Source of the DNA: Fusobacterium paranimalis
GTDB taxonomy: Bacteria; Fusobacteriota; Fusobacteriia; Fusobacteriales; Fusobacteriaceae
DNA: 64,000 nucleotides
Assembly: GCA_965278035.1 (NCBI GenBank)
Contig: OZ256152.1
Span: 767,389-831,388 of the forward strand
Direction of reading: 5' to 3'
In this document: positions 9,782 through 11,916 of the stretch, piece by piece
Layout: every line of letters starts with the position of its first letter
Position numbering within the stretch: the first letter of the stretch is position 1
Position numbers and translations under genes: made by a program
Notes under the pieces: model-generated
The model's database searches: none
Told to the model about the DNA's origin: nothing
The model's input: the letters and a program-made list of their open reading frames with translations, nothing else

Positions 9782-10645
9782 TTAAGATTCTTGTTTTGGA
9801 AGTATCATACAAATTGCTGCAGACAAAATTACTAAAATAATTCCAATTATTGAAAGAAAATTAAGTTTTTCACCTAATACTAAAACAGCGAGTAAAATAC
9901 CAAATACTGGCTCTAAAGCAAGGAATACTCCACTTTTACTTGCTTCACTTCTTTCAAGTCCTTTATTCCAAAACCATCCAGCACCTATACTACATCCAAC
10001 AACTAAATATAAAAGAGCTATAATCCCTTTTAATGAATAGTGTATTTCCCAACTTTTAACTAAAAATAGCATTATTGGCAAAGCAAACAATGTTCCTAAT
10101 TGAATAGTCAATGCTGTATAATAATTTGAGTTCATTTTTGTAAGTATTTTTTTTGAAAGTCGAACCCAAAAAGAAACTACTATAGTAGATAAGAATACTA
10201 AAAAACATCCAAAGAAAGATACATTTTCTAATGCCGAAACACCCACTGTTAATGCTACTCCAAAAAATGCAATAATACCTAATAAAAAAACAATAGGAGA
10301 GGCTTTTTCTTTAAAAAAGATAAATCCAACAATTGTTATCATAACAGGTTCAATGCCTATAATTGTTGTTGCACTTGAAGCTGAAGTAAAACTAAGCCCT
10401 ATAAACTGTAACATTGAAGTAAGAGGATATGTTAAAATTCCTAATATTACAAGTAAAATAAAATCTTTTTTTGTAAAAGATTCCTCTTTTTTTTTCATAA
10501 AAGAAAAAGTCATAGGCAATAAAATTATACTTGCAAGTATATATCTAATTGCAACAACTAAAGATGGATCAAGCATATCATAAGCAATTTTACCAGCAAT
10601 AAATGATGTTCCCCATAAAAATGCAGCTATTAAAAGATATATCAT
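9782..10645 (-). CDS. EamA/DMT-family transporter (10 TM)
   Basis: 287 aa with two roughly 140-aa hydrophobic halves typical of EamA-domain duplication. The start overlaps the upstream gene stop by 4 nt. Confidence 0.75.
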   Translation of the reverse strand: MIYLLIAAFLWGTSFIAGKIAYDMLDPSLVVAIRYILASIILLPMTFSFMKKKEESFTKKDFILLVILGILTYPLTSMLQFIGLSFTSASSATTIIGIEPVMITIVGFIFFKEKASPIVFLLGIIAFFGVALTVGVSALENVSFFGCFLVFLSTIVVSFWVRLSKKILTKMNSNYYTALTIQLGTLFALPIMLFLVKSWEIHYSLKGIIALLYLVVGCSIGAGWFWNKGLERSEASKSGVFLALEPVFGILLAVLVLGEKLNFLSIIGIILVILSAAICMILPKQES

Positions 10646-11916
10646 ATAATTCCTCCAAAAATTGTATCTTGTTTTACTGGCTTAGGAAATGTCTTATCAA
10701 GAGATAATACAATTTTTCTTGCACGAGAGGCATTTAAAGATAAATTAGGATCAACAACACCATGTGTATGCTTTCCTCCATTCAAATAAAATATTTTTCC
10801 TTTTCCTTCATACTTTAAAGAATAATCTTCTGAAATACAAACATTATAATTATTATCTTTTTTTATTTTTGATAGTATTTCATCTGAAAAAATTTCTTTA
10901 GGAAAATATTGTTTATATCCTGTTGCTAAAATTATCATATCAGCAGATATAATTTTTTGATTTTTAGAATAAATATTTTCTATAGCCACTTTAATATCTA
11001 AATCTTTATCAGTTTCAGTTACATCACAAACTGAACATTCACTATATATATTAAATTTTATTTGTTTTCCTATCTTTGAATATCTATTAGCATATAACAT
11101 CTGATAAACTTCTTCTATAGTATGAGGGGATGCCCCATCACTTGCAAAACGATATTGTTTATTAAGATTTTCTTTTAATTCAGAAGGAAGTTTATAAAAA
11201 TTACTCAATCCCATTTCTGTATAAATTTTATCTTCTGCAAATTGAGAATCTTCCATCTGATGTGTGAATGGTTCACGATAAACCATTGTAATTGATTCTA
11301 TATCATTATTTTTATCATTGAATAAATCAATTATTATTTCAAGAGCACTTTGACCTCCTCCTACAATAAGAATATTTTTTGCTCCTTTTTTTGAATGAAA
11401 TTGATATTCACTATTATGGAATATTCTTTCACTTAAATTATTCTCAAGAAATTCTGGAATAAGTGGTTTAACTCCAAGAGCCACAGAAATATTTTTAGCA
11501 AAAATAGGTTTTTGACTATCAGTTTTTAAAATAATCTCAAACCCTTCTTCACATTCTTTTATAAGTTTAACTTCATTGCCCATCCTTACTGTATCTAATT
11601 TAGAAATTACCCATTGAAGATATTGCTCATATTCCCATCTTAAAGTAAATGAAAAATTTGCAATTATATGTGATTCTAATCTCCCTGTTTCATATAAAAA
11701 GTTAAAAAATGAATATTCACTTGTAGGTTTAACCAAACTTACTAAATCTTTCAAGTTACTATTTTGTATAGTTGCAAATTTTAATTTCATTCCAGAATGC
11801 CAAAAAAAATCTGTTTTTTTATCCAAAAATAAACTTTTTAATTTAGTATCCTTAAGAAGTATTCCTAAACTCAAATTAAATGGTCCTGCTCCAATGCCAA
11901 CTAAATCAAATATCAT
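10642..11916 (-). CDS. L-lysine/L-ornithine N-hydroxylating flavin monooxygenase (IucD/PvdA/SidA family)
   Basis: N-terminal FAD motif DLVGIGAGPFNLSLG (compare the IucD/PvdA GxGxxN motif). A second Rossmann motif (NILIVGGGQSALEI) for NADPH. About 424 aa. A Shine-Dalgarno sequence GGAGGG is present. Confidence 0.7.
   Translation of the reverse strand: MIFDLVGIGAGPFNLSLGILLKDTKLKSLFLDKKTDFFWHSGMKLKFATIQNSNLKDLVSLVKPTSEYSFFNFLYETGRLESHIIANFSFTLRWEYEQYLQWVISKLDTVRMGNEVKLIKECEEGFEIILKTDSQKPIFAKNISVALGVKPLIPEFLENNLSERIFHNSEYQFHSKKGAKNILIVGGGQSALEIIIDLFNDKNNDIESITMVYREPFTHQMEDSQFAEDKIYTEMGLSNFYKLPSELKENLNKQYRFASDGASPHTIEEVYQMLYANRYSKIGKQIKFNIYSECSVCDVTETDKDLDIKVAIENIYSKNQKIISADMIILATGYKQYFPKEIFSDEILSKIKKDNNYNVCISEDYSLKYEGKGKIFYLNGGKHTHGVVDPNLSLNASRARKIVLSLDKTFPKPVKQDTIFGGII

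Follow-up and report, generated by a model that had tools for sequence, protein, structure and literature searches.

A 64,000-nucleotide (nt) stretch of the Fusobacterium paranimalis genome (GCA_965278035.1, contig OZ256152.1, positions 767,389 to 831,388; the whole stretch analysed, hereafter the window) carries two adjoining minus-strand genes, one for a flavin-dependent N-hydroxylating monooxygenase (NMO) and one for a drug/metabolite transporter (DMT) of the EamA family. We give an even chance to the reading that they form a mobile module of an IucD-type lysine N-hydroxylase and a dedicated DMT exporter, independent of the neighbouring opine-metallophore (cnt) pathway. Most likely, NMO would use NADPH and O2 to convert L-lysine to N6-hydroxy-L-lysine in an FAD-dependent reaction, and coupled translation would supply the DMT protein alongside it, which would export the product or protect the cell from it. 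As no acylation or assembly enzyme is encoded, no further step would follow; the pathway would probably stop at the N-hydroxy amino acid in free form, or at whatever it oxidises to spontaneously. A first-pass annotation of the window had raised the possibility that the pair supplies an N-hydroxylated diamine or amino acid that feeds the cnt pathway or leaves the cell directly, giving a hydroxamate-bearing, nicotianamine-like metallophore; that interpretation was partly supported.

The NMO gene starts with an ATG at 11916-11914, preceded by its own Shine-Dalgarno sequence (GGAGGG at 11927-11922), and its stop codon (TGA, 10644-10642) overlaps the EamA start codon (ATG, 10645-10643) within an ATGA (Table 1). 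A GGAGGA that ends 5 nt before the EamA ATG, and so lies within the NMO coding sequence near its 3' end, and the 4-nt overlap indicate that the pair is translationally coupled, as first annotated. NMO matched Pfam PF13434 (Lys_Orn_oxgnase) with an E value of 9e-87, scoring 291.8 bits where the cutoff is 21.3; its residues 2-335 span profile positions 2-338 of 339. Across 16 members of its clade, G7, G9 and N14 of the FAD motif (G7-x-G9-x-x-N14) were invariant, as were G186, Q189-S190 and E193 of the NADPH motif (G186-G-G-Q-S-A-L-E193) and G333-Y334 of the ATGY motif at 331-334, where A331 and T332 were nearly so. These features place NMO in the SidA/IucD/PvdA family of class B flavin N-hydroxylating monooxygenases, with a predicted activity to match. 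EamA matched PF00892 in two stretches, corresponding to two repeats (E 4e-44), and a crude hydropathy scan gave about ten hydrophobic segments, in agreement with the ten transmembrane (TM) segments originally assigned; both families named at first pass were thus confirmed. NCBIfam models for amino-acid and metabolite exporters matched EamA weakly, with scores far below equivalog cutoffs. Identical proteins carried the label Fusobacterium, and cluster members at 90% identity or above those of F. animalis 7_1, F. vincentii and F. periodonticum.

To hold the amino-acid moiety of their substrates, SidA, PvdA and KtzI use K107, N293, N323 and S469 (SidA numbering), a set that the cadaverine enzyme DesB does not have; DesB carries D391 (PMC8009421). 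We aligned the active sites of the EamA-linked NMO clade with those of DesB, DfoA, FbsI, PvdA, MbtG, Escherichia coli IucD and Vibrio AngU, the IucD and AngU sequences being taken from annotated plasmids. At the position of SidA K107 (PvdA K69), the clade has Lys or Arg (K56 in the window) and IucD, PvdA and MbtG have Lys, as against Ser in DesB and Ala in DfoA, FbsI and AngU. The region of SidA N323 reads (T/A/S)SDG(A/I)(S/T) in the clade (ASDGAS in the window), TSDGIT in IucD, TNYS in PvdA and MbtG, and (F/Y)KGI in the amine enzymes; the C-terminal loop reads (D/E)PNLS(L/A/V) (DPNLSL in the window), EPQLSL in IucD, SDTLLS in PvdA, TSSLLS in MbtG and PDLGMG in the amine enzymes. The position of SidA N293 is Glu in the Fusobacterium subclade, Asn in a subclade linked to LysA, Asp in IucD, Asn in PvdA and MbtG, and Leu or Gln in the amine enzymes. 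In a neighbour-joining tree (no bootstrap support) the EamA-linked clade was monophyletic and fell on the IucD side, separate from both the amine NMO clade and the PvdA/MbtG clade. The decarboxylase encoded in sister-clade operons passed the lysA equivalog TIGR01048 (407 and 391 bits vs 297.9), which identifies it by sequence as LysA, diaminopimelate decarboxylase, a dedicated supply of lysine and not a lysine or ornithine decarboxylase. Because the IucD-side signatures, the position in the tree, and LysA and other lysine-related neighbours agree, L-lysine is most likely the substrate of NMO.

The other lysine-related neighbours lie in CP159325.1, where four extra genes are inserted between EamA and metK (L006 13029-16943, also L023), at the equivalent of window positions ~9439-9736. 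They encode a Lys_export protein (PF03956), a B12-binding radical S-adenosylmethionine (SAM) protein, a lysine-2,3-aminomutase-like radical SAM protein (TIGR03822, 330 bits, below cutoff) and a 146-aa GNAT protein. In this one strain, their combination with NMO could lead to N-hydroxy (beta-)lysine in acetylated form, which would be a true hydroxamate.

Conservation of the pair extends well outside Fusobacterium. A search of 5.8 billion clustered proteins gave no more than about twenty clusters with 35% or higher identity to NMO, and in every such cluster with readable context an EamA gene lay directly downstream. Basilea psittacipulmonis (NMO 49% identical) carries the pair in a region that resembles a prophage and encodes MuF, fibre and CHAP proteins, and an NCBI contig (49%) carries it between PilY1 and chaperone-usher fimbrial genes. 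The pair is also intact in a Pasteurellaceae-like metagenome contig (46%), and in Pseudomonas-type contigs (37-38%) LysR stands beside an operon of NMO, EamA and the LysA decarboxylase. The junction between the two genes ranged from an 8-nt overlap to a 16-nt gap. EamA proteins linked to an NMO elsewhere (Basilea, L013, L121, L014, L015) were 39-64% identical to that of the window; the partners are orthologous among themselves, and within the close subclade the EamA partners were more alike than the enzymes (56-64% vs 44-49%). Linkage stopped at 34% identity, where the nearest classical relative, from Oligella urethralis, sits within an iucA-iucB-iucC-iucD operon. As a background we took 80 other NMO loci of reference genomes, drawn from the matches listed in a profile search of genome contigs with the clade alignment; none had a relative of EamA or LysA within 8 kb, and about half had IucA/B/C-like or adenylation-domain genes. 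A scan of viral contigs gave no relatives, and a phage database gave only Acinetobacter iucD, in phage-labelled records. By these comparisons the NMO-EamA module is conserved and co-evolving across Fusobacteriota and Pseudomonadota.

The pair is the cargo of mobile genetic elements, self-contained and horizontally mobile. By blastn, a 2.4-kb cassette around it was 98.8% identical over 2417 nt to pSB006A (NZ_CP056019.1), a 16.8-kb plasmid of F. vincentii from a colorectal adenocarcinoma isolate, which otherwise encodes only replication, mobilisation, recombinase and toxin-antitoxin functions and no other metabolic gene. The downstream boundary of the cassette recurs at 9737-9768 in L006, in F. 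necrophorum (9755) and on plasmids that carry EamA without NMO. In the window, the cassette occupies a variable slot: homology to a genome with alternative cargo (L017) ends at 9400 and returns at 12264, and, of the 10 distinct contexts whose CntM is 100% identical, 7 have other cargo there. That cargo comprises a DDE transposase, LysE, an adenylation-peptidyl carrier (A-PCP) protein, a PP-loop protein, a thioesterase and a phosphopantetheinyl transferase (PPTase); by its gene content it is a mini-cassette resembling a nonribosomal peptide synthetase (NRPS) system with its own exporter, whose product is possibly a thio-acid. In L017-L022 and L024, the A-PCP protein has 587 aa and the PP-loop protein (tRNA_Me_trans/ThiI/QueC-like) 350 aa. 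Type IV secretion genes adjoin the pair in all ten exact-protein contexts, and the exact NMO protein is indexed in 607 blocks of a public assembly collection. A search for transposon-like ends of the cassette was rejected, as flanking inverted and direct repeats were only AT-rich and at chance level.

Genes for building a siderophore were lacking around the pair, as had been noted at first pass. No IucB match was found by tblastn in the 64-kb window, no acetyltransferase was found among its open reading frames (ORFs) scanned against Pfam, and homologues of IucA, IucC and adenylation domains were likewise missing from it. The window thus holds no detectable NRPS, NRPS-independent siderophore (NIS) synthetase or IucB-type gene, neither the N-acyltransferase nor the NIS/NRPS component of a hydroxamate siderophore cluster, and no IucD-type operon with iucA/B/C. 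Without an acyltransferase, the pathway could lead at most to a free hydroxylamine, and the hydroxamate-bearing product first envisaged was not borne out. No Fur-box-like site was seen upstream of NMO or of the cnt operon, and a scan of the window returned 19 matches against 26 expected, nothing above chance, with a consensus that may not be that of the fusobacterial host. No riboswitch or other RNA element was found around the pair or in related loci. A reading of the pair as a defence system was dropped, as neither NMO nor EamA had a PADLOC match.

Several observations weigh against our reading. The tree that places NMO beside IucD lacks bootstrap support, and overall similarity peaks with the cadaverine enzyme DesB (E 3e-50), the best solved-structure matches being DesB, MbtG, DfoA, FbsI and PvdA. 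NMO passed no NCBIfam equivalog, the best being TIGR04439 (histamine N-monooxygenase) with 206 bits against a cutoff of 700. The lysine link runs through the LysA of the sister clade and the neighbours in CP159325.1, and is indirect for the window copy itself. Moreover, in the Fusobacterium subclade the substrate loop is longer by one inserted residue (FAED-K) and the position of SidA N293 is Glu, and therefore its substrate could differ from that of the LysA-linked clade. O2 is required by the enzyme, yet the host is anaerobic. Among the matches listed, the genome-contig profile search returned generic NMOs of no more than 35% identity, and no Fusobacterium or Basilea loci. Finally, EamA persists without the enzyme and so has a value independent of the NMO product, and in F. 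necrophorum an 86% identical EamA lies directly beside an orthologous cnt operon.

NMO has been lost at least three times independently, and EamA is intact each time. In F. necrophorum NMO is internally deleted, leaving only codons ~54-70 and the last 46 nt. On pKCOM1001A and the F. hwasookii plasmid NZ_CP013333.1, which share their backbone with pSB006A, EamA is 90% identical and 12 nt of the NMO 3' end remain, namely the region of the EamA Shine-Dalgarno sequence. Haemophilus parahaemolyticus has a 59% identical EamA with NMO pseudogene fragments upstream, while both genes are intact in a related contig; in Granulicatella, EamA genes occur in tandem and NMO is absent. The transporter may be a general amino-acid exporter, or a resistance pump against the product of neighbours. 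The second possibility suggests a producer and its immunity, in which N6-hydroxylysine or an oxidised form would be a secreted antimetabolite or redox toxin, EamA the self-resistance pump, and the copies without NMO orphan immunity genes. The repeated losses, the higher conservation of EamA, and the three kinds of carrier on which the module is found (plasmid, conjugative element, prophage-like region) are all in keeping with it. Nevertheless we consider it unlikely, as evidence of toxicity and a PADLOC match are both missing, a lone EamA could simply be a useful amino-acid exporter, and the LysA-linked chromosomal operons of Pseudomonas resemble ordinary metabolism. Rather unlikely, though worth stating, is a wider version: a minimal producer-plus-pump for a secreted N-hydroxy amino acid (N6-hydroxylysine or an oxidised derivative), which in communities living on a host would serve as a weak metal ligand, a redox agent or an antimetabolite, the system being spread by plasmids, conjugative elements and prophages, for which the EamA-only copies of F. 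necrophorum, H. parahaemolyticus and the small Fusobacterium plasmids would provide orphan resistance.

Alternatively, the pair could be an accessory of the opine-metallophore pathway, with CntL and CntM using N-hydroxylated lysine or diamine, or EamA exporting the opine, to give an N-hydroxy nicotianamine-like metallophore. The adjacent operon does encode a CntM (PF10100, E 5e-116) and a CntL-like protein (NF033601, 124 bits, below cutoff), and the convergence of the pair on metK and on the cntL/cntM-type operon, reported at first pass, was confirmed. The cnt operon and metK are adjacent and convergent in 9 of 10 NMO contexts and in three further metagenome loci (L131-133). A metagenome scan with CntM, whose search patterns were poor, gave 3 loci. 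Fusobacterial cnt clusters with a MatE exporter have already been published, and in other phyla a DMT exporter is a usual component of the cnt cluster (PMC7438024).

Some evidence for a link came from a reciprocal search with EamA, which led to F. necrophorum, whose cnt operon is orthologous to that of the window (substrate-binding protein 83% identical, FecCD 94%, ATPase 91%, MatE 87%, CntL 80%, CntM 76%). There the locus is chromosomal, without conjugation genes, and a SAM methyltransferase takes the place of metK. This methyltransferase (231 aa; L123-L126) is co-directional with EamA and converges on cntM. Some F. necrophorum strains have lost the importer genes proper to the operon and have, on the far side of EamA, another set of substrate-binding protein, FecCD and ABC genes (29-37% identity), so that EamA stands between importer and biosynthesis genes. 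The arrangement suggests that linkage is selected for, or that cnt and the pair moved together as one block; either such a block is old or co-transferred, or the cassette landed beside cnt twice.

Most contexts point the other way. The pair lies on the strand opposite cntL and cntM and outside their operon, and the 394-bp spacer between it and metK contains the metK terminator hairpin. EamA had been likened to CntI, the opine exporter; however, MatE is the exporter within the operon, and against the DMT genes that follow cntM in Arsenophonus and Vibrio clusters EamA gave BLASTP scores of 28.5 and 23.1 bits, local only, with no full-length similarity that would suggest orthology. The genomes whose slot holds other cargo retain an intact cnt gene set, and, with CntM identical in them, the cnt pathway therefore works or fails independently of NMO. 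F. necrophorum itself has lost the enzyme, pSB006A carries the pair alone, cnt is likewise missing around the EamA-only plasmid copies and from all six non-fusobacterial contexts of the pair, and there is neither the acyltransferase needed for a hydroxamate nor, with the caveat on the consensus given above, a Fur-box-like site in either promoter region. The association with cntL and cntM thus recurs among the NMO contexts, in the three metagenome loci and beside the F. necrophorum EamA, yet breaks down in the seven CntM contexts, on the plasmids and in other phyla; an obligate link was not supported, and conservation of the pair apart from cntLM largely holds outside Fusobacterium, whereas the F. 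necrophorum adjacency may reflect a functional or historical association within that genus. Since the cassette fills a variable slot of an element that appears to carry cnt and metK as well, we attribute its proximity to cntLM mostly to shared residence in a cargo region and not to a shared pathway. A role as opine accessory is accordingly improbable, as is the link to cnt in the biochemical form first proposed. Capture of the hydroxylamine by CntL/CntM, giving an N-hydroxy opine metallophore in strains with both loci, is a less likely variant of the producer-plus-pump version described above.

It is quite improbable that selection acts on EamA, as an exporter of amino acids, polyamines or drugs in general, with NMO a dispensable passenger such as an NADPH oxidase, an O2 scavenger or a dying gene. 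This would fit the anaerobic host, the survival of EamA without NMO in several lineages and on small plasmids, and the recurrence of frameshifted NMO alleles in public data. It sits poorly with the retention of all cofactor and active-site motifs over 16 diverged members, with a tight-junction pairing kept from Fusobacteriota to Pseudomonadota, and with the dedicated LysA of the sister clade, which argues for real biosynthetic flux. The frameshifted alleles have T7 in place of T8, which cuts NMO to 382 aa, and recur in three metagenome contigs, where metK is likewise split, and in several database entries; they could represent phase variation, pseudogenisation or homopolymer sequencing error. 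Homopolymers occur in both genes (T8 at 11802-11809 on the minus strand in NMO, A9 at 10487-10495 in EamA).

Fusobacterium produces diamines abundantly, and DesB is the best solved-structure match of NMO; even so, a putrescine or cadaverine N-hydroxylase like DesB, DfoA, FbsI or AlcA, one of the possibilities raised at first pass, is most improbable, as all four specificity positions are unlike the amine enzymes and like the amino-acid enzymes, the clade stands apart from the amine NMO clade in the tree, and the sister-clade decarboxylase makes lysine.

Table 1. Coordinates of the NMO-EamA pair and of surrounding features in the window.
Feature	Coordinates	Strand	Description
NMO (N-hydroxylase)	10642..11916	minus	424 aa; IucD-like flavin N-hydroxylating monooxygenase; predicted L-lysine N6-hydroxylase
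EamA	9782..10645	minus	287 aa; DMT/EamA transporter, NMO-partner subfamily; predicted exporter
ATGA start/stop overlap of NMO and EamA	10642..10645	minus	read from sequence
Shine-Dalgarno GGAGGA for EamA	10651..10656	minus	within NMO 3' end
47-aa ORF	12048..12191	minus	upstream of NMO; called as a gene in L007, L010, L030 and pSB006A
2.4-kb mobile cassette	9768..12184	minus	promoter region, 47-aa ORF, NMO, EamA; from blastn to pSB006A
Variable cargo slot	9401..12263		between metK and the type IV secretion block
Opine-metallophore (cnt) operon	1580..8164	plus	substrate-binding protein, FecCD, ABC ATPase, MatE, CntL-like, CntM; context, membership of the pair's module not shown
metK (SAM synthetase)	8233..9387	plus	TIGR01034, 531 bits
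Hairpin terminator downstream of metK	9434..9480	plus	inverted repeat I8: 21-nt arms, 86% complementary, 5-nt loop, then T run
Type IV secretion/conjugation genes	12267..26095	minus	93-aa ORF, TrbL/VirB6, Toprim, VirB4, VirB3, VirB11-like, coupling protein, TrbI, CagX
Tyrosine integrase abutting tRNA-Leu(caa) at 33957	32717..34044		probable right end of conjugative element

The cnt operon, metK and the pair all appear to be cargo of one integrative conjugative element, which would end on the right at the tyrosine integrase. No second copy of the tRNA-Leu 3' end, as expected of an att site, was found within the window, and therefore the left end of the element is not delimited; in related genomes (L017-L026), the left flank of the cnt operon contains genes for SLT, peptidase S26 and topoisomerase III, at positions that would fall to the left of the window. 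A plus-strand metK on the element is probably an extra copy, with a second, chromosomal allele elsewhere. This follows from L009, which over the compared range (8225-12100) had zero mismatches to the window at ~8900-12100 and ~6% divergence in the 5' two-thirds of metK, with unrelated sequence beyond metK (glyoxalase and an F-type ATP synthase operon). L009 was dropped as a case of the pair without cnt, as its metK mosaic is a recombinant or an assembly chimera through the second metK. Residence of the cnt operon and an extra metK among conjugation genes agrees with the uneven occurrence of cntLM across the F. nucleatum group, where ATCC 25586 does not have these genes (PMC11602996).

The window is AT-rich (GC ~22-33%). 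Upstream of NMO, the 47-aa ORF lies almost wholly within the mobile cassette, its first 7 nt falling outside the segment shared with the plasmid. It had no significant match in Pfam or PADLOC, and a guess that it encodes a ribbon-helix-helix regulator was set aside, as no profile backs it. At 51-938 on the minus strand, a 295-aa protein that ends in F and has a signal-like N-terminus had no Pfam match; every related locus has it, placed between SLT and the cnt operon, and it is possibly an outer-membrane protein of the element. Also within the element, near ParA, positions 27139-29396 encode a Dam-type N6-adenine methyltransferase and a YhcG/DUF1016 protein of the PDDEXK nuclease family. Beyond the tRNAs the window is ordinary chromosome, with glutamate fermentation, Opp-type ABC and P-type ATPase genes. 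The core glutamate-fermentation cluster at 35743-44345 encodes 2-hydroxyglutaryl-CoA dehydratase subunits and activator, CoA-transferase subunits, a carboxyl transferase and the beta subunit of a Na+-pumping decarboxylase. An Opp/Nik-type ABC importer (SBP_bac_5, two permeases and a fused double ATPase) with an adjacent SAM methyltransferase lies at 47445-53567; importers of this type serve staphylopine in S. aureus.

N-hydroxylases of the NMO family are treated as markers of hydroxamate siderophores, and here a conserved, co-evolving pair of enzyme and exporter occurs where assembly genes are lacking. The implication is that a free N-hydroxy amino acid is secreted as such, or that the pump guards the cell against such a compound. 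Fusobacterium of the nucleatum group, including colorectal tumour isolates, commonly carries the cassette, and an O2-requiring NMO in a nominal anaerobe could serve as a marker of behaviour at mucosal or tumour interfaces that are oxic. The locus also places a fusobacterial opine-metallophore operon and an extra metK among conjugation genes, beside a slot that exchanges small-molecule cassettes. Both protein families are known; a cassette of an IucD-like NMO and a dedicated DMT exporter without siderophore assembly genes appears undescribed, and searches of the literature open to search found no report of an NMO-EamA pair or of exported N6-hydroxylysine.

Of the known systems, IucD, the L-lysine N6-monooxygenase of aerobactin synthesis on E. 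coli pColV and Klebsiella plasmids, shares with NMO its Pfam family, fold class and cofactor motifs, the Lys at SidA K107, the (T/A)SDG and (D/E)P(N/Q)LSL signatures and an acidic residue at SidA N293. The two are only 28% identical, though on the same side of the NMO tree. Unlike IucD, NMO has no iucABCD operon and no IucB, IucA/IucC or receptor gene nearby, is coupled to a DMT exporter and, in the Fusobacterium subclade, carries the FAED-K insertion. DesB, DfoA and FbsI of desferrioxamine and fimsbactin synthesis score highest among solved structures and share the chemistry predicted for NMO, N-hydroxylation of a primary amine; however, they do not have the carboxylate-binding Lys, carry the YKGI and PDLGMG motifs (DesB D391) that are absent from NMO, and are clustered with acyltransferase and NIS synthetase genes. 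Pseudopaline/yersinopine-type cnt clusters of Vibrio and Arsenophonus likewise have a DMT/EamA gene beside cntL and cntM and a FecCD-type importer, but there the DMT gene follows cntM directly within the operon, whereas EamA in the window lies on the opposite strand behind a terminator. The amino-acid exporters RhtA, YddG, YedA and EamA have the same two EamA repeats (~10 TM) and match the window EamA or its Basilea orthologue weakly in NCBIfam; the window protein differs in being coupled to a biosynthetic enzyme and in scoring far below the equivalog cutoffs. Two-gene NMO modules are known from piperazate synthesis, where KtzI-KtzT stands alone in many genomes (PMC7347517). Although the partner of NMO in the window is a transporter instead of a second enzyme, with no further transformation encoded, the two modules share a minimal design of one N-hydroxylase with one partner gene.

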